From positions 248,001 through 312,000 of the forward strand of contig CM114271.1 in assembly GCA_050084515.1 (NCBI GenBank): a DNA stretch of 64,000 bases. Direction: 5' to 3'. The stretch's first letter is position 1; every line of letters begins with the position of its first letter. This stretch comes from Blasia pusilla. Taxonomy: Eukaryota. Under the pieces are notes generated by a model. It saw only the letters and a list, made by a program, of their open reading frames with translations. It was not told the origin of the DNA and did not search any database. The position numbers were made by a program, and so were the translations under genes. This document shows, piece by piece, positions 10,225 to 40,649 of this stretch.

Positions 10225-12104
10225 TGTCGTACGCATACACATCGCTACACAACATACATCGCTGTCACCGAACACACACACAGACACGCACGATCCCATG
10301 CTAACTCATGGCATCCAAACAACGAGACAAGAAGTACCAAAATATCTCTAATAAAATAATATCCAATCTCTCTCACAACACCATAGTTCTCACATGTCTC
10401 TCTCAATGTCAAACCAAACCCACTCTCCTAATGAGAGGCTTGGGTTACACACACAAGGCAAACAAGACCATAACTCCGCCGCCTCATGCCAATAGGTTCA
10501 ACAAAGAGAATGAGCTCTCAAGCTCTCTCTCCTTGACGTATACCCCTCCCCTCTCCCCAGCTCTCTCCATGGTAACCTATGCTCCCAAGTCACCTCCTTG
10601 GCTCTTGACCCGACTTAAGAGGTCAAGGGCCACTTACCAAAAATAGAAAGTCGATCATATACTCAAAATGGTACTTATCTAAAATAGTGAGTTCCTCAAT
10701 ATGACTCCAAATGAGCCGAAACGAAGGGGAGACCTCCTCTCTCAGGTTTTCCGGGGCCTCAACAGGTCATCCTCGACCTACTAAGCATGTCCTCCACTAC
10801 TCAGGAAGGCGCTCTACTAGATCTCACCGATGTATCCTAAAAGACGTGACAGTTTTCGTACGGATACACATCGCTACACAACATACATCGTTGTCACCGA
10901 ACATACACACAAACACCCACAATCCCATGCTAACTCATGGCATCCAAACAATGAGACAAGAAGTACCAAAATATCTCCAATCGCCCCCTTAGTTGGTGGT
11001 TAGGTCCCTCTAACTCTAGATAGCCATCTATCCCTACCTACCATGACATACATCTCTCGGACGCTGAGAGCAAGAAGGCCGGGTGCTCATGTGGCCCCAT
11101 CGTCAGTCGCCTTCTTGTCAACCATATCACAGACATAAGTCGGAATGTAGAACTAGCTACTCTATGTACATCTGGGACACATCCATCGTCCTGGAGGAAC
11201 CCTAATGAGAGGTGGCGTCAAACATGCCATATGTCATCCTCTCAAACACCCATCACAGACTAGCATAGTGGTTGCACCACGGGTGGGACACAACATACAC
11301 CGCAAGCCTGCAGGAACTATTGCTAAGCTTGGATTAACTATACCATCAATATTCGGAAGATGATATGGCGCACAATTACGCACATGGTCCTTCCAAACCA
11401 TACCATCGCGTCCCTCCAATAAAAGCACACAAGATGGTAAAACCTCACGCACTCTCAAGATGGTGCGCCCTGCAGTCACATCCAATGTCATGGGTGCCGT
11501 CTGCTGTAAGTAGACATAGTCTCCTTGATGAAACCTCCGGATATTAGGTCGATAACCACCTCCCAGAATAGTCGCATACCTCAACGTATCCTGATGTTGC
11601 GCAATCACCAAGTTCTCAAACGTCATAGGCATCACTCTTCGAAAAAACTCAGCCCTCTCAGAACATGCTCACATCCATACATCAAGGTCATCAAGGTTCA
11701 ACACCTCACCAGTATCTCAACAAATGGCTGGAGGTAAATCTGGCTCTCCGCCATAAAGCAACAAGTACGGTGAGAAAGACGCTAAGGATGCCTGCTTGCT
11801 AAATCTGTATCCCATCGCCAACCACGGCAACTGAAGGTCCCAATCTCCTAGGTGACCTCTCTGCAAGCCATACTTGTGTAGTCCTCTCTTCACTATGTGC
11901 ACAATCCGCTCCGCTAGTCCATCCGCCTCAGGATGATCTCGCGAAGTAGTGCGGTGGTCGATTAGTGCTTGATCACACAAGGCCTAAAACTCCCCGCGGA
12001 ACTCTGTACCCTGGTCTGTCAACACCTCAACTGGAGTGTCGTAATGACTCAACACTCGATCTAGGAAGGCATACACTACTCCCTCACTCGCTTTGTCAAG
12101 AAAT
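10225..12104 (-). mobile_element. E1: 3' fragment of the same family (S-L-S, PHD, integrase C-half)
   Basis: S 10225-10352, L 10353-10851, spacer GT, S 10854-10981. ORFs 11234-11635 and 11717-11980 match E3 INT/PHD. Truncated at ~12104. Confidence 0.93.
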
Positions 12105-17830: not shown

Positions 17831-20800
17831 CACAAAAACCCGAGCTCGCGCCCGGTGTTCCATGTCTGGACATGTCCGTTTCCTTGCAACCTTCGTAGTT
17901 CATGATTGCCTCCGATTAATTTCACTCACTCTTTCTTATTTCTCACCTCTCATCATAATGGGACCAGTGGGTTTCCTCTCATATCCACACGTGTAATCCT
18001 TTCCTTCAACGTGTTGGCTTCTGTCACTTGTGATATCTATGTCCAACCATACTTTCCAAAATCCCATGTATCTAATAAAAGACTCCATATAGCCATTTCT
18101 TATCTAAGTCCTACTTGCCATATGTGGCTCCAAGTCTGCTTAGTCATTCTTAGTAACCTTGCTTTCTTTCATTCTTAGATCCTCACTATTTCTTCACCTC
18201 TATGTTTATCCTCGACTTCCAAGTGCAAGTGCATCATTAGTATCCATTCCTTGCAACATTCTGATTTACGAAAAACCTTTTAGGAAGCACTATCAGCAAA
18301 CCACCTCTCATGTCTCTGAGCTCCTTAATCTCCTAGATTGTCATGGCCGGTTGTTGAATTCTGAAGTCTTAGTAATGAGGATGGGAGCCTTGCATCAAGA
18401 GCCCTAAATCTTTCCATCTATGGAGAAGAGTGATCCTAATCCCCTTGTCTGATCCATAAATCTCGCTTACACATCTAGATTAGTAAAAACTTTGAGACCC
18501 TTTACTCCCTGATCTTGCTTACACATTGAGTGCTTCTAGCATGTCTGAAACAAGCTTCACATCTGCAACTTTGTATCTTGGTCTAAAAAAATGAGGTTGG
18601 TTTTTGACCTAATGTAGTCCAACCAAATCTCTCTTCTAAAAATTTCTCGCGTTTGAAGTAGAAGAGAAAAGTCTTGAAGAGAGGTTAAGGATTTGGTCTT
18701 TTCTTTTGAAGAGAGACTCTACACTCTTCCTCTCCTCTCTTACTCTCTCATGCCAAAAGACCAACCCCCGAAATCTAACAGATTGTCATGCGCATACACA
18801 TTGTTACACAACATACATCGTTGTCGCCAAACATACACACAAACACGCACGATCCCATGCTAACTCATGGTATCCAAACAATGAGACAAGAAGTACCAAA
18901 ATATCTCCAATAAATGAAGTAGATCCAATCTCTCTCAACCATAGCTCTCAAATAAGTGCACTCTCACACATCTCTCTCAACGTCAAACCAAACCCACTCT
19001 CCTAATGAGAGGCTTGGGTAACACTCACAAGACAAGTAAGACCATAGCTCCGCCACCTCATACCAAGAGGTTCAACAAAGAGAGAATGAGCTCTCAAGCT
19101 CTCCCTCTTTGAGGTATACCCCCTTCCCTCTCCCAAGCTCTCTCCTCAGTAACCTATGCTCGTAGGTCACCTCCTTGGCTCTTGACCTACTATAGCGGGT
19201 CAAGAGCCACTTTCCAAAGTGGAAAGTCAACTCTACCAACCATGGAAACTTACCCAAAATATGGCTCCAAATGAGTCGAAACGAAGGGGAAACTTGCTCT
19301 CTCAGGTTTCTCAGTGACCTCAGCAGGTTATTTCAACCTCTAGAGCATGTCCTCCTCTACTCGCGAAGGCGCTCTACCAGATCTCTTTGATCTATCCTAA
19401 AAAGTCTGACAACTGTCGTACGCATACACATCGCTATACAACATACATTGTTGTCGCAAACATACACACAAACACGCATATCCCATGCTAACTTATGGTA
19501 TCCAAACAACGAGACAAGAAGTACCAAAATATCTCCAATGCCCCCCTAGCTGGTGGTTAGGTCCCTCTAACTCCACATAGCCATCTTTTCCTACCTACCA
19601 TGACATAGATCTCTCGGACGCTAAGAGCAAAAAGGTTGGGTGCACATGTAGCCCCATCGTTAGTTGCCTTCTTGTCATCCATGTCATAGACACAAGTCAG
19701 AATCTAGAACAATCTACTCTATGAACATCTCGGATACATCCATCATCCTTGAGGAATCTTAGTGAGAGATGGTGTCAACCATGCCATATGCCATACTCTC
19801 AAACACCCATCACAGACTAGCATAGTGGCTTCACCATGGGCGCAACCACACAACATACATTGCAAGCCTGCAAGAACTACTGCTAAGCTCGGATATTATA
19901 CTATCAATATTAGGAAGGTGATATGGCGCACAGTTATGCCCATGGTCCTTCCAAACCATACCATCGCCTCCCTCCTATAAGAGAACACCAAATGGCAAAC
20001 TCTCACGCACTCTCAAGATGGTGCGTCTTGAAGTCATATCCAACGTTGTGGATGCCGTTTGCTACAAGTAGACATAGTCTCTCTGATAAAACCTTCAAAT
20101 AGTAGGTCGATAACGACCTCCTCAAAAGTCGCATACCTCAATGTATCCCGATGATACGCAATTGCCAAGTTCTCAAACGTCATGGGCATCACTCTTTGAA
20201 ATAACTCAGCCCTCTGAGAACATGCTCACATCCATACATCAGGGTCATCAAGGTTCAACACCTCACCAATATCTCGACAAATAGCCAGAGGTAAATCAGG
20301 CTCTCAACCATAAAGTAGCAAGTACTGTGCAAAAAACGCGAAGGATGCCTACCTGCTGAATCTGAATCCTATCGCCGACCACAAAAACTGAAGGTCCCAA
20401 TCTTTTCTCCTAAACCCTCTCAACAAGCCATACTTGCGTAATCCTCTCTTCACCGTTTGCACAACCCTCTTTGCTAGTCCATCCGCCTCACGATGATCTC
20501 TCGAAGTGGTTCGGTGGTCGATCAACGCGTGATCACACAGGGCCAGAAACTCTCACGAAACTCTGTACCCTGGTTTGTCAACACCTCACTTTGTGCACTG
20601 TTATCACTTAACACTTGATCTAGGAAGGCATACGCTACTCCCTCACTCCCTTTGTCAAGAAATACAACCAACTCTATCCACTTCGAGAATTTCTCGACCA
20701 TCACCAACACATGACGACTATCACGCTCCATCAAAGGCAAAGATCGTGAAAAATCCAAACTCCATCTATAACCTAAACGCATGATCGGAAGTGGATGCAA

Positions 20801-20984
20801 CTATGGAGTCAGAACATTGAACGATGCTTGGACTCGATCACACACCATGCAAATGGCAACAAACTATTGAACATCAGTCTGCATGCCTCACCACCAGTAT
20901 TGTATCTGGAGCAAGTTGTACGTCTGCTTCACTCCAAAATGACCCAACTCCTCATGGGCATGACGCACCAAACGTGCTCTCTGA

Positions 20985-21112
20985 TATCGTGCGCATACAC
21001 ATCACTACACAACATACATCGCTGTCACCGAACACACACACAAACACGCATGATCCCATGCTAACTCATGGCATCCAAACAACGAGACAAGAAGTACCAA
21101 AATATCTCCAAT
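20985..21112. repeat. E3 short repeat S, terminal copy (128 bp)
   Basis: Near-identical to 21626-21753 (tgtcgtgcgcatacac...aaatatctccaat). Confidence 0.95.
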
Positions 21113-21623
21113 AAAGTAAGATCAATCTCTCTCTCCACCATCTCACAACATAGCTCTCAAAGGTGTGCACTCTCTCTCATGTCAAACCAAACCCACTCTC
21201 CTAATGAGAGGCTTGATAACACTCACAAAGCGAGGTACCATAGCTCCGCCGCCTCATGCCAAGAGGTTCAACAAAGAGAGAATGAGCTCTAAAGCTCTCT
21301 CTCCTTGAGATATATCCCTCCCCTCTCCCAAGCTCTCTCCATGGTAACCTATTCTCCCAAGTCACCTCCTTGGCTCTTGACCTGATGTAGGAGGTCAAGG
21401 GCCACTTACCAAAAATAGTAAGTCGATCATATACTCAAAATGGTACTTACCTAAAATAGTAAGTTCCTCAATATGGCTCCAAATGAGCCGAAACGAAGGG
21501 GAAACCTGCTATCTCAAGTTTCCAAGGGCCTCAGGAGGTCACCCTCGACCTACTGGGCGTGTCCTCCACTACTCATGAAGGCGCTCTATTAGATCTCACC
21601 GATCTATCCTAAAAGACGTGACA
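21113..21623. repeat. E3 long repeat L, 3' copy (~511 bp)
   Basis: Near-identical to 30807-31317 (aaagtaagatc...aaagacgtgaca), with only scattered differences by eye. Confidence 0.95.
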
Positions 21624-21625
21624 GT

Positions 21626-21753
21626 TGTCGTGCGCATACACATCGCTACACAACAAACATCGCTGTCACCGAACACACACACAAACACGCATGATCCCAT
21701 GCTAACTCATGGCATCCAAACAACGAGACAAGAAGTACCAAAATATCTCCAAT
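21626..21753. repeat. E3 short repeat S, internal copy next to the PPT-like tract
   Basis: Separated from L by a 2-bp spacer (gtgaca-gt-tgtcgt). Followed on + by cgcccccct, which is sense AGGGGGGCG and PPT-like. Confidence 0.93.
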
Positions 21754-21933
21754 CGCCCCCCTAGCTGGTGGTTAGGTCCCTCTAACTCCAGATAGCCATC
21801 TATCCCTACCTACCATGACATACATCTCTCGGACGCTAAGAGCAAGAAGGCCGGGTGCTCATGTGGCCCCATCGTTAGTCGCCTCCTTGTCATCCATATC
21901 ACAGACACAAGTCGGAATGTAGAACTACCTTCT

Positions 21934-22380
21934 CTATGTACATCTTGGACACATCCATCGTCCCTGAGGAACCCTAGTGAGAGGTGGCGTCAAACATGCC
22001 ATATGCCATCCTCTCGAACACCCATCACAGACTAGCATCGTGGCCGCACCACGGGCAGATTCACACAACATACAACGCAAGCCTGCAGGAACTACTGCTA
22101 AGCTCGGATCTACTGTACCATCAATGTTAGGAAGGTGACATGGCGCACAATTACGCACATGGTCCTTCCATACCATACCATCGCGTCCTTCCAGCAAGAG
22201 AACACCCGATGGCAAAATGTCACGCACTCTCAGGATAGTGTGCCCTGTAGTCACATCCAACGTCGTCGGTGCCGTCTGCTGCAAGTAGACATAATCTCCC
22301 TGATGAAACCTCCGGATAGTTGGTGGATAACCACCACCCCGAATAGTCTCATACCTCAACGTATCCCGATCGTTGTGCAA
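21934..22380 (-). pseudogene. E3 integrase C-terminal region with PHD finger
   Basis: CMLC...LVCDGCSRGWHMACLTPPL...WMCPRC is a C4HC3 PHD consensus. It is also seen, decayed, in E1 (~11170-11300) and E2 (~19725-19865). Confidence 0.92.
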
Positions 22381-22399
22381 TCGCCAAGTTCTCGAACGC

Positions 22400-23930
22400 C
22401 ATGGGCATCACTCTCGAAATAACTCAGCCCTCACGAGAACATGCTCGCACCCATACATCCGGGTCATCAAGGTTCAAAGACCTCACCAAAGATCTCGACG
22501 AATGGCCGCAGGTAAATCGGCTCGCCATAAAGTAGCAAGTACGGTGAAAAAGACGCTAAGGATGCATGCCTGCTGAATCTGTATCCCATCGCCAACCATG
22601 GCAACTGGAGGTCCCAATCTCTTAGGTGACCTCTCTGCAAGCCATACTTTCGTAAACCCCTCTTCACCGTCTGCACAACTCTCTCCGCTAATCCATCCGC
22701 CTCAGGATGATCTCGCGAAGTCGTGTAGTGGTCGATCAGGGCCTGATCACACAAGGCCTGGAACTCACCGCGAAACTCAGTACCCTGGTCTGTCAACACC
22801 TCAGCTGGTGCGCCATAATGACTCAGCACTCTGTCAAGGAAGGCATAAGCTACTCCCTCACTCGCTTTGTCAGGCAATGCAACCAACTCGATCCACTTCG
22901 AGAAGTGCTCGACCATCACCAACACATAACGACTGTGACGCTCCGTCAAGGGAAAAGGTCCTGCAAAATCCAAACTCCATCTATACCCTAAGCCCATGAT
23001 GGGTAAGGGATGCAATTGTGGAGTCGGAGCATTGAACGATGCTCGGACCCGATCACACACCATGCACCTGGCAACAAATTGCTGAACGTCAGTCTGCATG
23101 CCTCGCCACCAATACTGAATCTGGAGCAAGCTATACGTCCGCTTCACCCCAAAGTGACCCAACTCCTCGTGGGCATGCTGCACTAGTCGTGCTCTCTGCG
23201 CAGGATGCGGCACTACGCGTACTCTGCCATCCTCCCAAACCCTCAAAACATGTGTCCCCTCCCAACGGAACCATCTGGCCTGCTGTAGGATCCGATCCCG
23301 CTCTCTAGCATCCATGGTGCTTGCAACGCTGCCAGTACGAAGGTACTCCAAGACTACTCCATCATCATGAATATCTCGGCCACTTGTCGTGTCCTCAATG
23401 GCCTCGGGATCCAAGGACTCTCCACTAGACCTCGCCATCGAAGTCTCCACACTCTGGCTCTCCATAGCCAACATGCCTAAATAGGCTGACGCGTGCCATC
23501 CTGGCACCGACTCCTCATCACTCTCTCCATGCCATCGAGCTCTAGTCGCATCTTGCTGACTCGGGCATGGGTTACGACTCAACCCATCTGCATCCTGGTT
23601 GAGCGTCCCAGGTCTATGTACCACCTGAAAATCATACTCCTGCAACAACAGAGCCCATCTCGCAAGCTTCCCTCTAAGCTTGTCGGACTCGATCAACCAC
23701 TTCAGTGGTTGATGATCAGTGATGATGGTAAAGGGGTTGCCGAATAAGTAACACCTGAAATCGCGCGACCACACACATGACCAAGCACTCACCCTCATAC
23801 GAGCTGAACTTTGCCTCTGCCACGTTGTTCGAGCGGCTAGCGTAAGCCACCACGAACTCTCTACCCTCATCATCATGCTGGGTGAGCACCGCTCCAAGCC
23901 CCAACATGCTCCAATCTGTGTGCAATAGGA
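22400..23930 (-). pseudogene. E3 RNase H plus DDE integrase
   Basis: RNase H: LHTDWS...VVAYASR...TDHQPL...ADGLSR. Integrase: HHCC finger (HEELGHFG...CMVC) and core WSLDFAGP, VLTDQGTEF, HPEADGLAER. One frameshift. Confidence 0.95.
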
Positions 23931-25005
23931 AAGGACGCCCCCTGATCGGTCTCCTCAAGATGAGTGCGGACGTCAACCTCTCCTTGAGCAACTGAAATGC
24001 TCGCTCCTGCTCATCCCCCCAATGCCACTCGTGATCCATTTTGGTCAGCAAGGTCAGCGGCTTCGCAATCGAACTGAATCCCTTGACGTATCGCCGATAG
24101 AAGTTCGCCAATCCCATGAATGCACGAACACGGCTCACATCTCTAGGGCGTGGAATGCGTGTGATAGCCTCTACCTTTGTCTGCTGAACACCAAGGCCCC
24201 CTGGATATATCGTATGACCCAAGTACTCAATCTGGTTGTAGAAGAACTTACACTTGCCTAGATGTAGCTTCAGCCCATGTAATTGCAATCGTCGAAACAC
24301 CTCCTCTAGGTGTTGCTCATGCTCCTCAACCGTGGCGCTGAAGACTACGATGTCATCAATATAACACCTAGCAAAATCCAGAACAGCCAAGATCCTATCC
24401 ATGACCCTCTGAAACTCAACCGGGGCGTTCTTTAACCCAAATGGTAAGAACCGCCATTCGTACAAACAATCCTTCCCGTGAGGATCGATGCCCCAAAATG
24501 ACGTCTTCTACCTGTCCTCCAATCTGATAGGGAGCTGATGGTATGCGGCTCGTAAATCCAATGAACTCAAGACCTTTACGTGACCAATCGCATCAAAGAT
24601 CTCCTCAGGGGTGGGCATGGCATACCTATCGGACTTCGTCTGCCGATTGATAGGTCGGTAATCCCCACACATCCGCCTATCCGTCTAGTTGCAATGCACA
24701 TCCTTCTTGGCGGGCATGACACTGGCAGATGCATACTCCCCATGCGACATCTCCACTAGTCCTGCTCCGACCAAGTCCTGGCTCCTACTTTGAATCAGAG
24801 CCCTCTCCATATCACTGTGCCTGTAGGGTCGTCGAAAGATCGGCATATCACTCGACAACTCAATGCGGATCCCCGGTCCCTTCAGTGTACCCAAATCCTC
24901 CATGCTAAACGCAAAGCAGCTCCTATAACTCCCGAGGAACTGATGTATTCGGCGCCGCTCTCCTCCTGTCAACTTAGGGCCCATCTCTGGCTCCCAAGTC
25001 TCCAT
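23900..25005 (-). pseudogene. E3 reverse transcriptase (Ty3/gypsy type)
   Basis: PIFRRPYRHS, YEWRFLPFGLKNAP, RCYIDDIVVFS, KCKFFYNQIEYLGH; broken by stops. Confidence 0.95.
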
Positions 25006-25344
25006 CGTGACTACGGTAGGACTCTTCGGCGCGGGTATCGGTGGTTGCTATGGTGCAACCCCGTCTCGAACAACAACACTCGGCCGCTCTCCTGCAGCCA
25101 ACTGCAAACTCTAATCTCCTCCACGTGCAGTTCGAAACCACGCTCGATGTTGTGGCTATCATCTCCTGCAAAATATCCCAAGAAGTCCAAGGGTGTCTCT
25201 CCCGATCTCCCCTGGTGCGTAGATCTCCTCGGGTGTAGCCCCCAACCACTGCCTCCACCATCTCGGTAGGCATGGGGCTCACCAACGCAACCGTTGTGAT
25301 CTGTCACGATCTCATACGATGTTGCTCAGCCACTCCCAAGCTGA

Positions 25345-26285
25345 GGATCCATATCAAGCACTTCAGGTCCATCGCCTGACCCAAGACATGGCGTCATGAT
25401 GCCTCTGACACTGATGGTATTGCCATCACTCCTGTGGGAAATCCTATCGCTCGCTCTCTCTCGTCGACGTTGGGCTCCACCAACCGCTGAACCAGGTCAT
25501 CCCAAACCAAGCCAGGACCGGCCTCCTTGTATGCATAGGAAGCGGGAAAACTCACAAACGTGGGCAAGGCTGCCCGCGGCCTGCCTACCCTGTTGACCAC
25601 AGTTAGCGGTCGATCATCGTGCCTCACTTCCTGTGATCGACGACCTGGATCCAGAATGGAATCCACTAACAAAGGGGAGGGGCGCTCCACTCTCGTATAC
25701 GCCCTCCATAACATCGCATGGGGCACCAAGTTGGTCCACCATAGACGCGGGCGATGGTCTCTAGAACCTACACTCGCCGCATCCAAGAACACTGCCGGGC
25801 CGATCCAGGCACGCACCTGATGAGCACTAGTCACCACCCGTGACCTGGAGTCTCCTAAGATCGGCACATTCTCCAGAATGTAGGCTGGAGAACGAGGCGG
25901 TGCTCTTGCAATCGCCGTAAGACCCTCAACATCTCCCAAAACAACCTGGACCGAGTGTCACCAACCCCATTTGCCTCGTCCAAAGACTCGATTGGCCCTA
26001 ACATGGCCAACCGACAATGACCAAATCAATGGTCCCTACCGCTCTAAGTCTTGCGCCCCAACAACAAAATATCCTCGGTAGGGAACTCTGGTACTTCAGA
26101 TCGCTGGACGCTTGCACAATAAGTCGGGAAAACGAGGCGTAATTGCGCCACATATCGAGTGCGACGCGCCCGCAACATCATCACTCTCCAAATACATGTC
26201 GGGCCAGACTCGCACTCGCCTGCAAAAGCAAAGACTAACCCGTGCTAATCCCTCCAAAGAGATCTAACACTCGAATACCCTCCTC
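25345..26285 (-). pseudogene. E3 C5 cytosine DNA methyltransferase domain (DNMT3-like), disrupted
   Basis: Manual translation gives: motif I GIRVLDLFGGISTG (~26281-26240), II YLESDDVA (~26195), III EDILLL (~26075), IV IDLVIVGWPC*GQS (~26030-25990; PCQ with CAG>TAG), VI YILENVP (~25883-25863), VIII LDAASVGSRDHRPRLWWTNL, IX ERERAIGFPTG and X *RHVLGQAMDL (~25395-25362). The motifs are in canonical order. Confidence 0.92.
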
Positions 26286-26699
26286 CGGGACACACCACAC
26301 AATGGGTGTGGTATCCAAGGTGTCATCGTAGCACTCCTCGCTACCTCGGGTTCGTCGCGGACCCGCCACGCTCTGGTGCAAACGCCGCTCCACGCGGGTC
26401 CGATGACGACGTGCTCATCGCTAATCGTTGAAGCTCCTTAGTCGAGCCCCACTGCGGCACCTCTCCTCCACGGAATGATGCAACTACCATAACACTCCTC
26501 TCCATAGAAATTTCAGGAACGGGAGTATCCTCTGCATGGACATGTCCCTCAATGAAATCACTAGGCCAAGTGATGTCACTGCTAAATGCTGCTAAGGTCG
26601 CCATCTCTCCTGGCCATTGCTCGATCACTGCATCTCTGGATCGAACGGGTAATGAGCTAAGGCGCCCATCACCTGACTGCCATCCTGGTCTGGAGGACG

Positions 26700-27156
26700 C
26701 TGACTCCTCCCAGTAATCCAGGGAAAACCCCATCGGGTATAACACTGCTCCACCAACCAAGACGTCACAGGACTCTGCATCAGTCACTATCGCCTTGGCG
26801 TGCACCACGGACTCATCTGTAGGATATCCCGGGCGAATCCTCACCACGACCTCCTATCAGGTGATATACTGTGTGGTACTCGCTCCACCCAAGGATGTCT
26901 GTAACCGAAATGGACAACGCTCCACATCGGCTCTCGTCAAGCCTAATCCTCTGAATGACGCTTTCCCCAACATCAAGGGTTGCGCTCCTGAATCCAACAA
27001 GACGCGTTGCGGACTAAAAGCTCTACCTCCAGGACTCACCAACTGGAAGACCTCTCCTCGGTTATCTAGCAACACAACACCAAGAGAAGCCATGGCACGC
27101 TCTATCGCGGGTGTAGCGGGCATCTCCGCCATCCTAGCGACCATGCACTTTGCCAT
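26700..27156 (-). pseudogene. E3 aspartic protease
   Basis: RVLLDSGAQPLMLG (DSG catalytic motif) and downstream CDVLVGGAVL. Confidence 0.85.
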
Positions 27157-27421
27157 GAATCGGCGTGGACGGCCCGAGCATCCGCTCCAAGGGCAGGTCC
27201 ATCACCTCCTCTGCAATCACCTCTGAACATGATGCAGGAACTCCAACTCCGCGCTCACATAGTGAAGCGGCCAGCCGAAAAGCCTCGGCGGGCGTACCCC
27301 CCAACGTCACAACATCGGAAGCAGAAAATAAAGGAGTGCGGTACACAACGGTGGCCGCCCCCAACAACGTGCTTGACACATGCCCCTCATGAGCATCAAC
27401 AATAGGAGTCTTCGCACTCGC

Positions 27422-29000
27422 TTATCCCATCGCCCTCCGTGCCTGCACACTAACAACATTACCAACTCTCCAAGAACTTTGTTGAGGACCCATCGTCCTC
27501 ATTGCTTCCGACAACGTGAAAGACTGAGGAAGCCTAGTCTGTCTTTTGGCTTCCCCTCGCTGTGGATCCAACTCTGCGGCTGCTCCACGCGTCACAACTG
27601 CGGCGGCCTCCATCTGTGAAACCCTGCACATCCATCCAGGATCCTCCTGATCTTTGGCTGCTCCATATGATGTCGATGCCACGGATCCGACATCGGGTAA
27701 CCTCAATGCCATAGCGGCAATCTGCTCCTGTAGCTGCTGTATCTGAGCAGCCATCCCAGCCTCACGTCCGCCATCTCCCTCGGCGCATCTAGGTGGTGGT
27801 ACTCTACCTCCTCCACGGGCAACTCCAGCTCCTCGTCCCCCAACGGGACCACATGGTGCACGATCCCTAGGTGCACCCGGACCGGCTACTCGCTCTGGTG
27901 CCCTCTCTAGCCCTCGGTCCGAAAGTAACTCAGGATGTAAACTGAAACACCTGGCGCGTGTATGACCATACCTCTGACAATAGTCACACTGATAACCTCC
28001 TGGTGCAGCACCATCTCCTCCTCCATGCTGAGGCACACGTCCATGACCCTGACGAGTGCAATCGCGCTGATGATGGGCTCCACCACATGACCAACAAGTA
28101 ATAGTAGGCGGCTGCTGCAAAGCCGCATATGAAGGCGCAGGTCTCTGTGGCACGGCCTCCCGATATCCTCCCTGAGCTCGTGGTGCCACAGTCGACCTAT
28201 CTCAGAGTCCACGTTGCTGCATAGGTGGTGTAGACAATCGTGACTGCTCTCGCCCAAAACCCATGGTGGCTACGCTCTCCTCCGCCATGTTGCGCTCAAT
28301 GTTCTCGGCGTTCCTAAAAACATCTCTCAACGTAGGGGAGGTGTTCATAAGAAGCACCCCCTCCCGCACCCGTGTCCGCAGGGTCCGGTCTAGCATCGCG
28401 TACCATGACTGGATAGCCTGAGCCTCTGTCACCCCCTGAGTGACGCTGATCAACCGGCGCAAGTGAGTGTAAGCCTCACGCAAACTCTCACCCGGGCGCC
28501 TCTGGAAGTCGTGGATGCTCCGCAACTTCTCCATCCGTACCCCCTGGTAGCTCGCCCTCAACTCAACAAAGAACTCAACCACAGGGTTGAACCAAGGACG
28601 AACCCGACTAGACGGTGCAACTGCTCCCGTGTGAGTGACTCCTCCTAAAATATCACTAGTGGAAGAGTCAATAGCCTCTCCTAACTCCTCCTCCTCATCT
28701 GGGAACGGCTCTGTCCATGACACATAATGTGGGTCATAGTAGAGCCTCCACACCTCAATCTCACATGCATATCTCTGAGAGAACTCATGGTAATCGTCCA
28801 TGGGCCCCCTCTAAATCTTTGGAACATACCGTTCCATCTTTGTAAATGGGTTAAACTCTCTAGAGTTCTGGCCCATTGGGAGTCTCACCAACTTCTAAAC
28901 TCGCTATAAAATCGCAACTCAATCGTGCCCCTCTCGCACTGAAAACCTATGTCGGTCCTCTACCCCGTCGTCCATCTCAAATGACGCCCAACTGGTAGGA
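27422..29000 (-). pseudogene. E3 gag (capsid-like region plus two CCHC zinc knuckles), disrupted
   Basis: ORF pieces 28202-28801 (FQRRPGESLREAYTHLRRL, gag-like) and 27422-28189 (CWSCGGAHHQRDC, CDYCQRYGHTRARC). The true start is not defined. Confidence 0.85.
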
Positions 29001-30092
29001 CCACTCACAATGTGTGGCAATGTGCTCACAAACTCCTCTACACCCTCCCCCTCGTCTGACGATGACACAGAAGGAGGTCGAGGTGGTCCCTCACGTGGAG
29101 ACCCTCGGAACCTCGCGCCACTCCGCGTAAAACCTCTAGAGCTACTCTCGGGTTCACCACCTCGCCTCTCAAAGTCCCGAACGGACCCCGTGATGATCCT
29201 CCTGCCCCTCTCACCTGATCACTCTGAACCTCGTGAGGAATCCCTCAATCACTCATCCCAAACATGCGGCACTCGATCTACACTCTCTCTCCCCGAGACG
29301 TGTAACGTGCGGCAACACGCAGCGTGGTGCGGCAAATCGACCAGGCTATCATCTCATCAAAAACCTACCCTCAACTCCGGACATCCCACACAGGTCTATG
29401 TCCCCTAGACCACATACATAAATAATGCTCTCAGCATCCACACACCCAATATCCCCAAATAAATCCCAGAATCCCTCACACGTGCACGGTAAAGGACCAG
29501 AATGGGTAACCTGAACACATGTCGATGTCGCTCCTCAGCAACTGCAAATCTCGACCCCAACTCGATCGTGGAGACAACTCCTCCAATCAGCAAGTCATAC
29601 TCCTCCCGTACTGATGCTGCTCAAAACTCCTCAATAGAAAGTTCGGTCCCAGCGGAACGGTGCGGCGTTGCAGGCGGCACGGAACGGCTACGAACGAGCA
29701 CGGCCCTCGATGGTGGGATGCGGCACTCGGCGGCATACCATCCTCAATCAATAATAATCCCACACTCTGCTCCACAATGATGGTGCGGCTCGCGATCGAG
29801 CGGTGCGGTGCGACCCACGAGCGCACGGGCGTGGCAATCGGCGGCTAGCGTTGCGACTCACGGGGTCACGCCACGATACTCGATCGTCGTCGGCGGCTAC
29901 CAATCACAACATAGCAGCATGAAATCAAAACTCAAACACCATAACCGAGGTCATCCGCCATCGGTTGATGAAGAAACTGCGATGACGGTGGCGGCCAAAA
30001 CAAAGTACGTGGTGGCGACGCAAGTCAAGGAATCAACGAACGTCGTGGAAGACCCTCCACTCCGTAATGGCGGCGATGGCACCCAAAGGGTG

Positions 30093-30240
30093 GACAATGG
30101 ATGGTGGACCGTTGATAGTGACGGTTGACCGCTGATGGTGATGGCCGACTAATGACGGTGATGGTTGACCGTTGATTGTGATGGTTGACCATTGACGGTG
30201 ACGATTGACCGTCGACCGTTGACGGTGACTATGATGGTGG
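30093..30240. repeat. Degenerate minisatellite in the E3 5' leader
   Basis: Repeated tgacggtgatggttgaccgt-like units; absent from the E2 leader. Confidence 0.8.
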
Positions 30241-30790
30241 CGGCTGATTTAGGGTTTGCACAATTTAACCCTAAAAATCGCCTAGCAATGGCAGCTTTAC
30301 AAGATTGACCATAACTTTTTACTCGCAACTCTAAATTCTGCATTGTTTGTTGCACATCGTGCACAGCTTCACAATCTACGCCAGCATCAAAAAATATTTA
30401 GAATCAAACATTTCAGTAAAACCTGACGGGGACTGTCGTAAAGCCCAATGTCTCTTTCTCCTACACCAAATTCGGCAGCGCTCCCGCGCTGATTTCTCCC
30501 AACGAAAATGTAACATCTATAAAAATACAAATCAGAAAGCTACATGGTGCTCCCGAGAGCACCAGCATGGGGCAACCCACCCCCATACTCAATCCCTATG
30601 AGAAATTGGGCAGCGCTTCCGCGCGCCACTCTTCCACACGAAAAATCGGCAAATGCAACGAATAATGAAAGCAGCCCTTGCTCCGGTGAGCACTCCCATG
30701 AGCCGCTGAACGGGGAACACGGTCCCCAACCTGCAAAAACAACGAGTGACCAGCGAGCTCCCCCATGAAGCCCTCTCACTCTCTCATTCT

Positions 30791-30806
30791 CTCATTCTCT
30801 CTTTGT
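30791..30806 (-). promoter_or_regulatory. Putative self-priming primer-binding site of E3
   Basis: Sense ACAAAGAGAGAATGAG directly abuts the 5' L repeat and is the reverse complement of a 16-mer inside L (perfect at 21271-21286; one AG shorter at 30967-30980). No tRNA-type TGG PBS is present. Confidence 0.65.
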
Positions 30807-31317
30807 AAAGTAAGATCCAATCTCTCTCTCCACCATCTCACAACATAGCTCTCAAAGGTGTGCACTCTCTCTCATGTCAAACCAAACCCACTCTCCTAAT
30901 GAGAGGCTTGGGTTACACTCACAAAGCGAGGTACCATAGCTCCGCCGCCTCATGCCAAGAGGTTCAACAAAGAGAATGAGCACTCAAGCTCTCTTTCCTT
31001 GAGGTATACCCCTCCCCTCTCCCAAGCTCTCTCCATGGTAACCTATTCTCCCAAGTCACCTCCTTGGCTCTTGACCTGATGTAGGAGGTCAAGGGCCACT
31101 TACCAAAAATAGTAAGTCGATCATATACTCAAAATGGTACTTACCTAAAATAGTAAGTTCCTCAATATGGCTCCAAATGAGCCGAAACGAAGGGGAAACC
31201 TGCTATCTCAAGTTTCCAAGGGCCTCAGGAGGTCACCCTCGACCTACTGGGCGTGTCCTCCACTACTCATGAAGGCGCTCTATTAGATCTCACTGATCTA
31301 TCCTAAAAGACGTGACA
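30807..31317. repeat. E3 long repeat L, 5' terminal copy
   Basis: Direct repeat of 21113-21623. No S copy at this end. Confidence 0.95.
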
Positions 31318-34300
31318 CTGAGAAAGATGAGGCACTACATGCATTCTACCATCCCTCCAAACTCGCAACACATGTATCCCCTCCCACTGGAACGATGTGG
31401 CTCGATGTAGGACTGATCCCGCTCTCTAGCACCCACTATGTTGGCAACGCTACCAATACACAAGTACTCCAAGACTACTCCATCATCGTGAATGTCTCGG
31501 CCACCGGTCGTCTACTCATCCGCCTCTGGATCTTAGGACTCTCCATCAGACCTTGCAACCGACCTCTGAACAACTTGGCTCTCTATATCCGACAAGCCCG
31601 AATAGGCTAATGCGTGTCATCATGGCACCAACTCCTCATCACCATGCCAACTCTTGCCATGCCAACGAGCTCCAGTCACATCTTGCACACTCGAGCATGG
31701 GTTACGGCTCAAACCATCTGCATCGTGGTTGAGCGTCCCAAGTATATGCACCACTTGGAAGTCATACTCTTGCAACCAAAGAGCCCATCCTGCAAGGTTT
31801 CTTGTAAGCTTGTCCGACTCCATCAACCACTTAAGTGGCTGATGATCAGTAATGATGGTAAAGGGGTAGCGGAAAAAATCACATCTAAAATGTGCGACAG
31901 CCCACACAACATCCAAGCACTCATCCTCATACGAGCTATACTTCGCCTCAGCATCGTTATTCGAGCGACTAGCGTAAGCCACCACGAACTCTCTACCATC
32001 ATCGTCATGTTGGGTGAGCACGGCTCCAAGCCCCAACATGCTCCAATCTCTATGCAATTGGAAAGGACACCCCGTGATCAATCTCCTCAATATGGGTGCG
32101 GACGTCAATCTATCCTTGAGCAGCTAAAATGCTCTCTCCTGCTCATCCCCCCAATGCCACTCCTGATCCACCTTGGTCAGCAAGGTTAGCGGCTTCACAA
32201 TCGAACTGAAACCCTTAACGTACCGTTGATTGAAGTTCGCAAATCACATGAATGCATGAACTCGACTCACATTTGTAGGGTGTGGAATGCGTGAAGTAGC
32301 CTCTACCTTCATCTGTTGCACACCAAGGCCCCTTGGGTATATCCTATGATCCAAGTACTCAATCTGGTCGTAGAAGAACTTGCACTTGCGAGGATGTAGC
32401 TTTAGCCCATGTAATTGCAATCCTCGAAATACCTCCTCTAGATGTCACTCATGCTCCTCAACAGTGGCACTTAAGACTACGATGTCATCAATATACACCT
32501 ACCAAAACACCACGTGTACTCTTGCCTGCAAAACAGCCGCTAACCCAGTGCTAATCTCTCCAAAGAGATCCAACACCAAAATACCCTCCTCTGGGATGCG
32601 CCATACAATGGGTGTGGTATCTAAGGGCGTCATCATAGCACTCTCGGCTACCTCGGGTTCCTCCACGCGGTCTCCACATGCTCAGTGGCTAAGGGTCAAA
32701 GCTCCTCAATCGAGCCCCAAAGCGGCACCTCTCCTCCACGGACTGATGCGGCGACCATCATACTACTCTCCATAGAAATGTCAAGAACGGGAGTATCATT
32801 TGCATGGATATGTCCCTCGATCAAATCACTAGGCCAAGTGATGGCGCTGCTAAATGCTACTAAGGTGGCCATCTCTCTTAGTCGGCGCTCGATCATCGCA
32901 CCTGTCAATCGAATGGGTAATGAGCTAAGGCGCCCATCACCTGATTGCCATCCTGGTCAATATGACGCTGACTCATGCCTGTATTCCAAGGAAAACCCCA
33001 TAAGGTACAACACTCCTCCACCAACCAAGCCGTCGTAGGACTCTGCATCATGACTCATCTGTAGGGTGTTGGGGGTGAATCCTCACCACAACCTCCTGTC
33101 GGATGATAAAGTGTGTGGTACTCACTCCATCCAAGGATGTCTGTATCCAGAATGGACAACGCTCCACATCGGCTCTTGTCAAGCCAATTCCTGTGAATGT
33201 TGCTTTCCCCAACATCAACGGTTGTGCTCCTGAATCCAACAAGATGCATTATAGACTAAAAGCTCTACCTCCTTGACTCACCGATTGGAAGACCTCTCCC
33301 CAGTTATCCAAAAAAATAACACTAGGAGAAGTCATGGCACGCTCTATCGTGGGTCTAGCGGGCATTTCCGCCATCCTAGCAACCGTAACCTGCCATGAAT
33401 CTAACGTGGCCAGCCTGAGCATAAGCTCCAAGGGTAGGTCCATCACCTATGAACGTGATGTAGGAACTCCAACTCCACGCTCACACAGGGTAGCGGCCAA
33501 CCAGAAACCCTCAGCGGGCGTACCTCTCAACGTAATAACATCAAAATCAGAAAATAAAGGAGCACGGTACACAACATCCTTTATTGTGGCCGCCCCCAAC
33601 AACGTGCTCAACACATGCTCTGCTGAGCATTAGCAATAAAAGTCATTGCACTCGCTTCTCCCATTGCCCTCCGTGCCTACACACCAACAACATCACCAAC
33701 TCTCTGGGAACTTGATCATGACCCATCGACGGGGTCCTCATCGCCACGGACAACGTCTAGCCTGGTCTATTTCCTCACTTCCCCTCGTTGTGGATCCAAC
33801 TCTGCGGCTGCTCCACACGTAAAAACTGGGGTAGCCTCCATCTCGGCAACCCTGCACATCCAACATGGATCCTTGATATCTCTGGCAACTCCATAAGATG
33901 TCGATGCCACCGATCCAACATCGGATAACCTCAATGCCATAGCGGCAATATGTTGTTGTAGCTACTATATCTGAATAGCCATCCCAGCTTCACGCCTGGC
34001 GTCTCCCTCAACACGTCTATGTAGTGGGACTCTACCTCCCAACAGGACCACCTGATGGACGATCTATAGGCCCACCCCGAACAGCTTCTCGCTTTGGTGC
34101 CCTATTTGGCCCTCAATCCAGAAGAAACTCAGGGTGCAAGCTGAAACATCGGGCACGCGTATGACCATACCTCTGATAATAGTCACATTCATAACCTCAT
34201 GGTGAAGCACCATCTCCTCCTCCATATAGAGGCACGCATCCATGACCCTATTGAGTGCAATCGTGCTGATGATGAGCTCCACCACATGACCAACAAGTAA

Positions 34301-37300
34301 TCATAGGCGGCTGGTGCTGAGCCGCATATGAAGGCGCAGGTCTCTTGTTTTCTTCCCTGAGCTCGTGCTGTCACAGACCTATCTCCAAATCATCGTTGCT
34401 ACACTGGTGGTGCAGTCAATCGTGACTGCTCTTGCCCAGAACCCATGGTGGCTACGATCTCCTTCGCCATGTTGCGCTCAATGCTCTCAGCAGTCCTAAA
34501 AACATCTCTCAAAGTACTGGAGGTATTCATAAGAAGCACCCCCTCCCTCACCTGTGTGCGCAACGTCCAATCCAGCCTTGCCTACCATGATTGGATAGCC
34601 TGAGCCTTTGTCACCCCGTGAGTGACGTTAATCAACCGGAGCAAGTGGGCGAAGGCATCACGTAAACTCTCACCCGGGCGCCTCTGGTAGTTGTGGATGC
34701 TTCGCAACTTCTTCCTCCATATCCCTTGGTAGCTCGCCCTCAACTCAAAGAAGAACTCAACCATGGGGTTGAACCTGGGACCAACTTGACTGGATGATGC
34801 AACTGCTCTAGTGGGAGTCAGCCCTCCTAAAACATGATTGGTGGAGGAACCTTCTCCTGACTCCTCCTCATTTGGAAATGGCTCAGTACATGACACATAG
34901 TGTGGGTCATAGTAGAGTCTCCAGGCCTCAATCTCATGGGCATATCTCTGCGAGAACTCATGATAATTGTCCATGGGTAGCCCGTCTAAATGCTGGAATA
35001 TTTCAGTCCATGATGTAAACGGGTTGAGCTCTCTAGAATTCTTAGACGGCTGTGAGTCACACCAACTCCTAAACTCCAAAATTAAGTCATGTAACTCTAT
35101 AGTGCCTATAGCATCCACAAACCTATATGGTCCTCTGCCCCGGTTGTCCATCTCTAAACCAACAGGTAGGACCACTCAATGTGTGTAGTGGATCACTAGC
35201 ACACTCCTCTACACTCTCCCCCTTGTCTGAAGATGACACAAAAGGAGATAGTCACAGAGGTGGTCTCTCACGTGGAGACTCTCGAAACCTCGCACCACTC
35301 CAGGTCAACCCCCTAGAGCTATTCTCGGGTCCACCACCTCCCCTCTTGAAGTCCTGAAAGGGCGCCGTGATGACCCTCGTGCCCCACTCACACGATCACT
35401 CTCAACCTCACGAGTAATCACTCAACCATTCAACTAGACAGGCGACACTCAATCCACACTCTCTCACTAAGACGTGTGTTGTGCCCCAACAAGCGGCGTA
35501 GTGCAGAAAATAGTACTATCCTATCATCTCATCGACATGACATACCCTGAACTCATGACATCCCACACAGGTCTATGTCCCCTAGCCCATACATCAATGA
35601 TGCTCTCAGCATCAGCACGGAACCCAATATCCCAAATAACTGTCCAATACCCAGAAATCCCTAACACCTACAGGGCAAAAGACCAGAATGGATAATCTGA
35701 CAACAAGTGTCGATGTCGCGCCTCAGCAACTCAAAAACCTTGACCCCAACTTGGTCATCAAGACAACTCCTCCAACCAGCAAGTCGTACTCCTCTAGTAC
35801 TGACGATGCTCAAATCTCCTCGATGTGCGCTGAGGGTCCAGCGGTACAGTGCTAAAAATAGCACGTCACTCGGTAATAGGGTGCGGCACTCAGCGGCATA
35901 TCCTCCTAAAGAGCAATACACGCTCTGTTCTCCAGTGCGGTGCGGCCACAAGCGGTAAGGCGTGGCAATCGACGGGGCGTTGCGGCTAGGGGCATCATGG
36001 CACGGTACTCGATCGTCCTTGGGCGGCTATAAATCACGGCATAACAAAGCGGATAGAACACTACGACCCCATCAATCCAAAATGCAAACGGTTTGCCGCG
36101 AACACAAGCACCCGCGGCGGTGTGGGATAGAGATTCAAACGCACAACTCTACTGGCGGCACTAATGCAGGGTCAGACGGAGCAGCACACGGCTGCACAGC
36201 GGCCCAATTTTTTATCGACACTAAGAGGTCCAAAATCAGGGTAGCGGCCCTAAAGCGCCGACGGACCACATAGCATACAACGGAGGTACCAAATGCACAG
36301 TCGGTTGGCGCATCTCTGGGACAGTCGACTAGGACGTGGTAGGACAGACGTTGTCCCCCGAAAAAATTATTTATTCATTTAACTAGAATAACCCTCCGGG
36401 AAAATTGGATCTCCAATATCTTTCTTTACTAGATAGCCCCCTTCTTGATAAGTATGCAAATTAAATGCCTTATCACAAATCCCTCCTAAGATTAAGGGTC
36501 AATACTCCCCAAAAGTGGGATCTACTCACTCCAACTCCAAATAGCTGAATTCACTTGTCCTATCCATCAAGTGAACTGATTTTTTTTTACCTCTCAAGAA
36601 AGAATTTCTACCCAAAAATTTTGAAATTTCACTCACACCTTGGAACGATGACTATGGCAGTCCAACAAAAATAATCATAACTTCGTTTTTCAATCTCCAA
36701 ATTATGCACCATTTCTTCACCAGCGTACACCACTTCCCGATCTATGACCTCATCAAATTAGTTTCTCCATTTGATTTTCCACCAAAACCTGAGGGGGACT
36801 GTCATGCAGCCCAACGTCTCTTTCTCCTACGCAAAATTTGGCAACGCTTTCGTGTTGATTTCTCCCAAAAAAATGCAAAACTTATGAAAAAACAAATCTG
36901 AAAGCTACACGCTACTCCCGTGAGCACCGGACTGCCCCCATACTCAATCCCTATCTAAAATTGGGCAGTGATTCCGCGCGTCACTCTTCCATAGTAAAAA
37001 TCAGTAAAGGAAACATCAAAAGTAAGCAACTCTTGCCCCGGTGAGCACTCCCATAAACCGCTGAATGGGGAATACGATCCCTGACCTCCAAAACCAGGGA
37101 GCGACCAGGGAGCTCCCCCATGAAGTTGTCTCACTCACTCATTCTCTCTTTGTAAATCAAGTAGATCGAATCTCTCTCAACACCATAGCTCTCAAATGTA
37201 TGCACTCTCACATGTCTCTCTCAATGTCAAACCAAACCCACTCTCCTAATGAGAGGCTTGGGTAACAACTCACAAGGAAAGCAAGACCATAGCTCCACCG

Positions 37301-37333
37301 CCCCATGCTACGAGGTTCAGCAAAGAGAGAATG

Positions 37334-37525
<192 letters not shown>

Positions 37526-38329
37526 GGTATACCCCCTTCCCTCTCCCAAGCTCTCTCCTCGATAACCTATGCTCGGAGGTCATCTCCTTGGCTCATGACC
37601 GGCTGGAGCGGGTCAAGGGCCACTTCCCAAAGGAAATTCAAGTCTACCAAATATTGAAACTTACCCAAAATAGTAAGTTTCTCGATATGGCTCCAAATGA
37701 GCCGAAACGAAGGGGAAACCCGCTCTCTCAGGTTTCCTAGGACTTCAGCAGGTCATCCTTGACCTCCTAAGCCTATCCTCCTCTAATCGCAAGGGCGCTC
37801 TACCAGATCTCTTTGATCTATCCTAAAAAGTCGTGATAGGATAGACTGGATCCCAGAAAGAGGGGTGAAAAAAAAGGAAGATGTCACTTGAAACACTAAG
37901 AGCAACCTGGACAGATTAGGGGCACTTTATTTGGGACTCCCAACCTCATTCCCAACACTTCATCTCGAAATGGCTCCATTGAGGTACCCATGAAAAAATT
38001 GAGAGGAAACCCACAGTTTCAATTCTGATCAGAGGTGACAGAAAACTAATAGCTAACAGATGACAACTTTAACCAAATATTGTATAACAACCATTCATAA
38101 ATATACATCTAAGACGAGTAGTCGAGAGGTTCTGATCAAAGATTACCAAAAAAAAAAAAGAATTGCAAAATGACGAAATCCGACAAGTTGCAAAACAGTG
38201 TGTAAGGCAAAAGGTATGAGAAACTTATCATTGGGGGCCATATGAATTAATGTTAGGAAACACAAATCCATTCAGACCTGCAACCCATCGAAATGAGACA
38301 GATTGCAAAAGAGTTATGGAAGAGAGGAA

Positions 38330-39600: not shown

Positions 39601-40649
39601 ACATTGCAAGTCCTTTATTACATCCGAGGGAAACTTTGAAATTTATATTTTATTAATGAAACCATAAACTCTAGCCTATGATTTCTTCAGCCTCGTCATC
39701 TTTAAATTTACTCATAACTTTCCTGGGTTCTTGTAAAAAAGGAATGTCTTGGGATACAAATGGCTCCGATTGTATATGGGGATTGAGAATGTAGGGGAAT
39801 TCGATAGCCTTGCCCATCCCATCCCCCCGCCCTACCTTAGGTACACCATATCAGTCCCATATATCATGATTTGAGTCCCAACGGCAATAAATCTTGTATG
39901 CCCTACAAGGTGACACCCATTCAGTATCAATATGTGCTCCGCTTGAAACCACTAAATCCCAACTCCAAAACGCTTCAATCAATTAAACCCGATAAATCCA
40001 TTGAACTCACTTGTCATCATCGGAGGACTCTTCCAAAATTACTGCCGACCTTGCCCTCCCGATTTTTGAAATTATAGGAAGTGTCAACGATGGTGTCACT
40101 ACCAATGGATCTGCAACTGGAGCACTTGGCTTTGGAGGGGAGTTGTAGACTCCCACCGGCCTCTTGTAATCCGCCTTTGCCTCCTTGCAAAGGTCAAAAA
40201 GTTCCTTCCTGCCCTCAAGGTAGAGGCCGGGTGCTCGAGGCCGGGTGACTTGGTCTTGGATTTGGTAGGCTTATTAGGGGCAAGTATCAGAGGCACCTGG
40301 TAGAGTGGCAGGAAGATTCTCTTCTTTTGGAGTTGGGATTTAGCAGTCATGTTGGCAAGTCACCCGGCCATGAGCATCTGCATCAAGGCACGTGACTTCT
40401 CCCTTCCTCCAAGAAAGGGGGTCCCTTCCAGCATGAAAATTCCCGGGGAGGGAATTGTAAAGGCTATTTAATGTGAACCCATCGGAGCATGAATCAACTG
40501 GATCACGGATCTGAAACACTTGAAAATTGTGTTCCGGTCTCACAAAGCACTAGAACAAGACAGGTGCAAAACATTGTCATCTTTAAAGTGGAACAAGCAT
40601 GCAATCTGTCCCAAACTGACGGGTTGCTCATGAGCCTACACGAGGATCT

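Follow-up and report, generated by a model that had tools for sequence, protein, structure and literature searches.

A 64,000-nt stretch of the Blasia pusilla genome (GenBank assembly GCA_050084515.1, contig CM114271.1, positions 248,001 to 312,000 of the forward strand; hereafter the window) carries three related retroelements, E1, E2 and E3, which belong to a clade of green-lineage Ty3/gypsy-type retrotransposons encoding protease, in some members a DNA methyltransferase (DNMT), reverse transcriptase (RT), RNase H, integrase and a PHD finger (PR-(DNMT)-RT-RH-IN-PHD). Rather than two equal long terminal repeats (LTRs), the integrated element has a single long repeat (L) at its 5' end and a short-long-short array (S-L-S) at its 3' end, all enclosed by one target-site duplication (TSD). 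We propose, with slightly better than even confidence, that the integrated copy is a circular permutation of a canonical cDNA, produced when the integrase cuts an internal palindrome and the tips of the cDNA are joined to each other. A first-pass annotation had described the element as a DDE-integrase retroelement with split direct repeats and TSDs; this interpretation is partly supported, being right in substance, wrong about the precedent that it named, and too emphatic about novelty and about the lack of LTR function. The window thus adds members to an already known but barely described kind of element, and the new part is an anatomy that makes the mechanism testable.

Split direct repeats within a target-site duplication

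The elements of the window were read by self-BLAST of the window and by direct reading; coordinates refer to the plus strand, and the coding sense is minus throughout. The best preserved copy, E3 (20985-31317, minus strand), reads in sense 5' L(511)-internal-S(128)-2 nt-L(511)-S(128) 3', as the first-pass annotation had it to the base. Its lone 5' L of 511 nt (30807-31317) is followed by the internal part (21754-30806), an internal S of 128 nt (S_int, 21626-21753), a 2-nt spacer (21624-21625; AC in sense, GT on the plus strand) that forms the centre of the palindromic S/L joint GACA-AC-TGTC, a 3' L of 511 nt (21113-21623) that begins TGTCACG in sense and matches the 5' L at 501 of 511 positions, and a terminal S of 128 nt (S_term, 20985-21112) that matches S_int at 125 of 128 positions. 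The element therefore starts with TGTCACG and finishes with CACGATA, in which the final CA has mutated to TA; S_int still finishes with CACGACA. The tetranucleotide CTGA lies immediately outside both ends (20981-20984 and 31318-31321), and the family's TGTCA(C/T)G…CACGACA ends with 4-bp TSDs agree with the TG…CA termini and 4-6 bp TSDs of Ty3/gypsy elements. E3 is nested within E2 in the same orientation, and a paralogous uninterrupted stretch in its own body (around 23190-23200) has the target tetranucleotide once, as CTGC, with no S beside it, indicating that the boundaries and the CTGA duplication of E3 reflect a real insertion.

The other two copies end in the same way. E2 (18784-37838, minus strand) has an S-L-S 3' end at 18784-19539 (S_term 18784-18911, L 18912-19411, spacer 19412-19413 reading GT in sense, S_int 19414-19539) and a lone 5' L (37153-37838) that is split by a (CT)n array; a perfect (CT)93 microsatellite at 37336-37522 explains the 190-nt length gap between the two L copies of this element. 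Lone 5' L repeats with 4-bp TSDs had been claimed for both E2 and E3: the lone L is present in both, but the flanks of E2 (AGAT and GGAT) match at only three of four positions. E1, whose body is broken off near 12133, retains its 3' end on the minus strand (10225-10981; S_term 10225-10352, L 10353-10851, spacer 10852-10853, S_int 10854-10981). The three copies are 83-88% alike. Within each of the two full elements the S pair and the L pair have diverged in step (about 98% alike for both in E3; about 91% for S and 88% for L in E2); both pairs were therefore identical at insertion and are renewed at each transposition.

Relatives were sought in one scan of metagenome contigs, which gave 445 candidate stretches, 352 of them confirmed; the best 80 were taken as loci and probed with the L and S of three families, and loci with common flanks were merged into unique elements. 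The order pol-S-L-S recurs in 19 unique relatives whose repeats are unalignable between families, which places the split-repeat layout far beyond chance. Two further relatives (L046 and L074) have pol-S-L followed by a 5'-truncated S, 12 have pol-S and then unrelated DNA (L-body-S forms), locus L025 holds one additional S-L-S in reverse orientation, and the few that remain are interrupted by contig ends or other events. Three more distant loci (L001, L006 and L051) show G-run-S-GACA-NN-TGTC-L up to the contig end. At the 5' end, L stands alone with no adjoining S in all 21 unique copies. An initial test based on the G-run and the probes had found a second S in 24 of 53 loci; when read directly, the 29 misses proved to be single-S or truncated forms, members of other families, or loci without a clean G-run. 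In one of the families, imperfect tandem units (CGTCACGACA CTACA…; for example L012 13043-13673) make up the 3' portion of S, and in L012 and L040 the two S copies of one element can differ by one such unit.

Target-site duplications place the outer S inside the inserted unit. Perfect 4-bp TSDs flank eight of the 11 unique full relatives in which both ends are available (L005, L015, L018, L022, L029, L042, L054 and L071); L017 matches at three of four positions and L040 and L057 do not match. The duplication is also perfect in L046, the one element checked with a truncated S_term, and in all four single-S forms checked (L010, L011, L016 and L069). These positions bear directly on the simplest reading of the structure, in which L alone is the LTR of an ordinary element and the outer S is secondary, arising by local duplication, gene conversion or insertion beside a pre-existing S. 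An L…L pair by itself does resemble an LTR pair, and would be reported as such by standard tools. That S_term lies inside the TSD in E3 and in the eight full relatives refutes this reading, which we regard as very improbable; the empty site of E3 contains no S, the layout recurs in 19 unique elements with unalignable repeats, and it is S that finishes in CA whereas the 3' end of L lacks this dinucleotide. Still further from credible, to the point of being negligible, is the idea that the structure results from faulty assembly or from a solo LTR that inserted into the 3' end. Repeats are in general prone to mis-assembly, but nothing further speaks for it, and the first-pass annotation was justified in dismissing both: three window copies that are 83-88% alike share the structure, which is found again in contigs of many independent metagenome assemblies.

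A Ty3/gypsy-type polyprotein with a DDE integrase

The degenerate pol of E3 (21937-27102, minus strand) comprises a protease region, a DNMT-like region, RT, RNase H, an integrase and a C-terminal PHD finger, as judged from Pfam matches (RVT_1, RT_RNaseH(_2), Integrase_H2C2, rve and the PHD finger) and from tblastn with the polyprotein of a better preserved relative, L015. The latter encodes protease (gag-asp_proteas), a C5 cytosine-DNA-methyltransferase, RT, RNase H, integrase and PHD finger in a single frame with four in-frame stops, and E3 aligns with it from the protease region through to the end. The methyltransferase of L015 (8732-11275; PF00145, E = 2e-9) lies between protease and RT, as it does in many database homologues; the corresponding region of E3 shows 28-40% tblastn similarity to it and is degenerate, with no Pfam match. 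The 5' portion of the internal region of E3 (27103-30790, minus strand), presumably gag and leader, contains no family recognised by Pfam.

The affiliation with DDE-integrase elements made in the first pass stands. Besides the rve and Integrase_H2C2 matches, the catalytic residues D688, D748 and E783 are invariant in an alignment of 10 relatives, and Ty3 Gag-Pol is the closest solved relative (best PDB match, E = 4e-97). No tyrosine recombinase was matched by Pfam at E <= 0.01 in 19 open reading frames (ORFs) of E3 or seven of L015. Homologues come from the green lineage, including a Coleochaete transcriptome (66%) and Klebsormidium, Closterium and volvocine algae (45-55%), and proteins of Klebsormidium nitens are 49-55% identical to the RNase H-integrase ORF of the window. 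The order PR-RT-RNaseH-IN is that of Ty3/gypsy elements, but the two equal LTRs usual at their integrated ends are found neither in E1-E3 nor in the 19 unique relatives. Chlamyvir was considered as the clade to which the family might belong and rejected, as it is a chromodomain clade and not a PHD clade.

Outside E1-E3, extra short pol-like pieces lie on the minus strand at 40634-40834 and 42479-42742, with 41-43% identity to the L015 polyprotein, and beyond the retroelement nest no ORF of at least 220 amino acids is present elsewhere in the window. The first 2,000 nucleotides (1-2000) are strongly AT-rich (GC 0.26, against 0.38-0.55 in the remaining window).

Priming signals, repeat joints and a proposed circular permutation of the cDNA

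Two candidate priming signals indicate how the repeats might be used in reverse transcription. A polypurine-tract-like G-run (21754-21766, minus strand; AGCTAGGGGGGCG in sense) lies immediately 5' of S_int in E3, and equivalent G-runs end exactly at the start of S_int in relatives (for example GGTCTGGGGGGGG), the position of a polypurine tract (PPT) before a 3' LTR. At the other end, a segment resembling a primer-binding site (PBS) adjoins the 5' L (30791-30805, minus strand; CAAAGAGAGAATGAG in sense), and these 15 nt are complementary to a segment within L (21272-21286, minus strand in the 3' copy) that, on the strength of this complementarity and of a position conserved in three families, we predict to be the start of R, that is, the RNA 5' end. 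Of the 21 elements tested, 13 have 10-17 nt directly downstream of the 5' L that form an exact complement to a site within L, a length reached by at most six of 300 shuffles; the 15-nt complement in E2 was equalled in none of 300. The spacing between the L end and this internal site is conserved (about 125-130 nt in one family, about 170-183 nt in the remaining two), and the paired sequences themselves differ among the three families (TCTAGAAAAACT, ACTCAAAGAACTATGTT and CAAAGAGAGAATGAG), so that unrelated pairs at an equivalent site amount to covariation. For the L042 leader, the predicted fold has a 21-bp stem between PBS and L site, extended by 3 bp past a one-base bulge (z = -4.15). A PBS complementary to the RNA 5' end is the self-priming arrangement of Tf1. 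Inspected by eye, none of the three families shows a tRNA-type PBS (TGG…) following the 5' L.

The positions of PPT and PBS, each beside a repeat as in Ty3/gypsy elements by sequence and presumably so in function, suggest that reverse transcription treats S plus L as a normal LTR, and the earlier wording that split repeats stand "instead of LTRs" was to that extent too strong. They also identify the joint between the 3' L and S_term, which couples the base immediately preceding the PBS to the base immediately following the PPT, as the two tips of a canonical cDNA of order S-L-body-S-L. This correspondence is exact, by eye, in about eight of 12 assessable elements, E2 and E3 included. Among the inexact joints, L005 has 17-19 nt of filler and L029 lacks 2 nt; in L046 an intact L end is joined to the last 28 nt of S, and in L074 merely 5 nt of S are left. 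These look like end-joining scars. L057 and L077, a single insertion sampled twice in two diverged genomes with flanks 92% alike (L057 13196-13565, L077 13165-13499), carry on their 3' L about 50 extra nucleotides of leader past the usual L end, plus TTC or CTC ahead of S_term. The extra leader is as expected if minus-strand DNA began further downstream, and looks like a mis-primed minus strand fixed in the genome.

The internal S/L joint is palindromic (CACGACA-NN-TGTCATG, core GACA-RY-TGTC), with a purine-pyrimidine spacer in 25 of 26 joints scored by script and in five more by eye (30 of 31; the sole exception is AA), so that the two half-sites of CA-NN-TG are symmetric. By its geometry, cuts after each CA would give two recessed CA-3'OH ends with 2-nt 5' overhangs, like processed retroviral ends. 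The integrated order (L, body, S, L, S) equals the predicted cDNA (S, L, body, S, L) in length and content, and an integrated copy can be described as this cDNA after opening at the 5' LTR palindrome and joining of the tips; S+NN+L would then be the replicative LTR and the integrase would act at the internal palindrome.

A cycle of six steps would account for this relationship. Transcription would begin within the 5' L, and the RNA would end at a poly(A) site within the 3' L; minus-strand synthesis would be self-primed, as in Tf1, immediately after the 5' L; the plus strand would start at the G-run just ahead of S_int; and the resulting cDNA would be S-L-body-S-L, with S, 2 nt and L as its replicative LTR. 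The integrase would then ignore the cDNA tips and cut both strands at GACA-RY-TGTC within the 5' LTR copy, releasing two CA-3'OH ends with 2-nt 5' overhangs for insertion with a 4-bp stagger. Lastly, the U5 end of L and the initial base of S, which had formed the cDNA tips, would be joined together and persist as the L/S_term joint. Tip joining might take place (a) after both palindrome-derived ends have integrated, by host joining of the two free tips, (b) beforehand, through formation of a 2-LTR circle, or (c) by continuation of the plus strand from the U5 tip onto the other tip (reverse transcriptase run-on). A preference for the 5' site is required by, or follows from, options (a) and (c), and (c) would yield single-S products as well. 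With its two identical palindromes, a free double-stranded 2-LTR circle should give the permutation L-S-L-body-S in about half of the insertions; that permutation was found in none of the 21 unique 5' L copies, which weakens the plain double-stranded circle model.

The strongest competitor borrows the replication of PAT- and DIRS-like elements and supposes that an integrase has been swapped in: the RNA would begin within the 5' L and extend into S_term, the internal S/L joint would template the missing outer L and S, and a linear L…S DNA would integrate by its tips. The order A1…B1-A2-B2 is indeed that of PAT, Toc, Kangaroo, Ngaro and Viper as laid out in PMC4157794, the internal joint does resemble two abutted ends, and both repeat pairs are renewed each cycle. 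We nevertheless think it unlikely. The PPT-like G-run before S_int and the self-priming PBS after the 5' L occupy the canonical positions for an S+L LTR, and the aberrant joints (S_term without its 5' part beside an intact L end in L046 and L074, and the 50 extra leader nucleotides on the 3' L of L057/L077) fit tip joining and not templated copying. A weaker point comes from RNA depth, which falls about 5- to 10-fold from 21254-21630 to the adjacent bin 20877-21253, on reads that derive from related copies.

These reads belong to three stranded RNA-seq runs (X22, X23 and X24), carrying the species label of the best-matching DNA data, that were aligned to the E3 region and counted in 377-nt bins, with the copies of L and S multi-mapping. 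Reads on the element are almost exclusively first mate on the plus strand, which means sense transcripts provided that the library was prepared in the usual way. Coverage reaches about 60-160 in the 3' third, drops to about 5-25 across the 5' body and is about 0-1 on either side of the element. In each run, 35-71 reads depart from E3 exactly at the PPT/S_int boundary (21753) and continue in sequence that differs from E3, the reverse complement of which begins like the S of the L027/L042 family. Most reads derive from relatives whose S differs from that of E3, and the transcribed subfamily of this organism therefore has another S, with an L027/L042-like start. The S module seems exchangeable between subfamilies, with its last ~25 nt staying alike. 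A further class of reads joins 22789 to 29511 (four in X23 and three in X24), bypassing 6.7 kb of body, and may represent an internally deleted non-autonomous derivative or a spliced RNA. Differences between RNA and E3 (20500-31800) are dominated by C>T (254-286 per run) and G>A (205-218), two- to ten-fold above any other change, which may be due to deamination of methylated copies or to plain transition bias.

Several observations count against the proposed permutation cycle. The whole of it is read back from integrated copies; the absence of L-S-L-body-S forms obliges it to include a bias for the 5' site that it does not explain; and PBS complementarity is weak in four of 21 elements (7-8 nt, matched by many shuffles) and absent in another four. 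Pol is degenerate in all 29 relatives measured, the longest open frame covering 13-43% of the pol match, and this fraction is similar in full forms (0.13-0.43) and L-body-S forms (0.15-0.34), giving no separation of primary products from recombinants; the L-body-S forms may have arisen afterwards by S×S recombination and be uninformative on integration. The metagenome hosts of the relatives may be few. Most X22 reads are 90-95% alike to E3 (1,904 of 2,561) and derive from related copies, only 22 of 2,561 reaching at least 99%, so that E3 itself is probably silent, and the bins are too broad to place the RNA start and poly(A) sites.

The permutation cycle carries a wider claim, which we advance tentatively as a possibility not far short of even: that the clade integrates obligatorily via an internal palindromic att site and not via the cDNA tips, each copy carrying a fossil tip-to-tip junction of the "2-LTR circle" type. 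If true, it would constitute a route to split direct repeats independent of tyrosine-recombinase elements, and the clade could be a living model for the emergence of DIRS-type architecture from an LTR element.

Comparison with known systems

The layout A1…B1-A2-B2, in which the internal joint consists of abutted ends, has been described for PAT, Toc, Ngaro and Viper (PMC4157794), and the first-pass annotation correctly set it against the presence of a DDE integrase here. Those elements have a tyrosine recombinase and no DDE integrase, whereas the window family has a DDE integrase, TG…CA ends and 4-bp TSDs; it shares the repeat order of DIRS-like elements without their recombinase. To our knowledge the tyrosine-recombinase retrotransposons of this group make no TSD, which is a second departure of the window family from them. 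The family could show an origin of split direct repeats, a feature hitherto tied to tyrosine recombinases.

The combination of Gypsy domains with such repeats is not new, contrary to the suggestion in the first pass. KnitGypsy-Dnmt3 of K. nitens was given a DIRS repeat structure with Gypsy domains in a single sentence of the legend of Fig. 4c of de Mendoza 2018 (PMC5890265), section 9 of which contains no TSDs, termini, priming sites or mechanism for it. It resembles the window element in its Gypsy domains and the repeats A-coding-B-A-B, its pol includes a DNMT as does that of L015, and it belongs to the same clade as the window element; the window copies differ in coming from another organism and in the degeneracy of their DNMT region. 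That legend is the sole precedent for an integrase with split direct repeats found in the main texts searched, in which the name KnitGypsy occurs in no other paper. A possible further relative is Gypsy-7a_cRei of Chlamydomonas, for which the legend of Fig. 6A of PMC9940879 gives a PHD finger and "LTR subparts", the left LTR lacking the final 8 bp of the right; these subparts may be related to the layout described here. The same source terms TOC1 a "non-autonomous DIRS retrotransposon".

Troyka elements, proposed in the first pass as a precedent, are none. They share with the window family an LTR-type organisation, an integrase and non-standard ends, but as characterised in PMC12440569 they are confined to animals, have 3-bp TSDs and CG…CG termini, and are curated as an ordinary LTR pair with an internal part; the window family has 4-bp TSDs, TG…CA ends and green-lineage relatives.

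LTR finders that expect equal repeats with adjoining TSDs would, by inference, miss the family or set its 3' boundary one S early. The clade is frequent among contigs with streptophyte-algal affinity, as the 352 confirmed relatives from one scan attest, and its PHD-bearing lineage is unlisted in LTR-finder-based surveys; the term "PHD" has no occurrence in Neumann 2019 (PMC6317226), which mentions predicted self-priming for one plant clade.

Ty3 and the Tf1/Sushi-type elements are similar in the order PR-RT-RH-IN, the PPT, TG…CA ends, short TSDs and, for the PBS, Tf1-like self-priming, but have two equal LTRs and integrate via the tips of their cDNA. A parallel to the proposed integration step exists in HIV-1 and foamy virus, whose integrases are reported to cleave the palindrome where the two LTRs of a 2-LTR circle meet (PMC1905944 and PMC1180852); an enzyme of retroviral type there acts on an internal CA…TG palindrome and frees two ends fit for use. 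In retroviruses this cleavage is a side reaction on a dead-end product, whereas in the window family it would be obligatory, with the palindrome within each LTR. As its copies record, base for base, the starts of plus- and minus-strand DNA and the integrase site, the family is a natural test of a retroviral-type integrase working from an internal palindrome.

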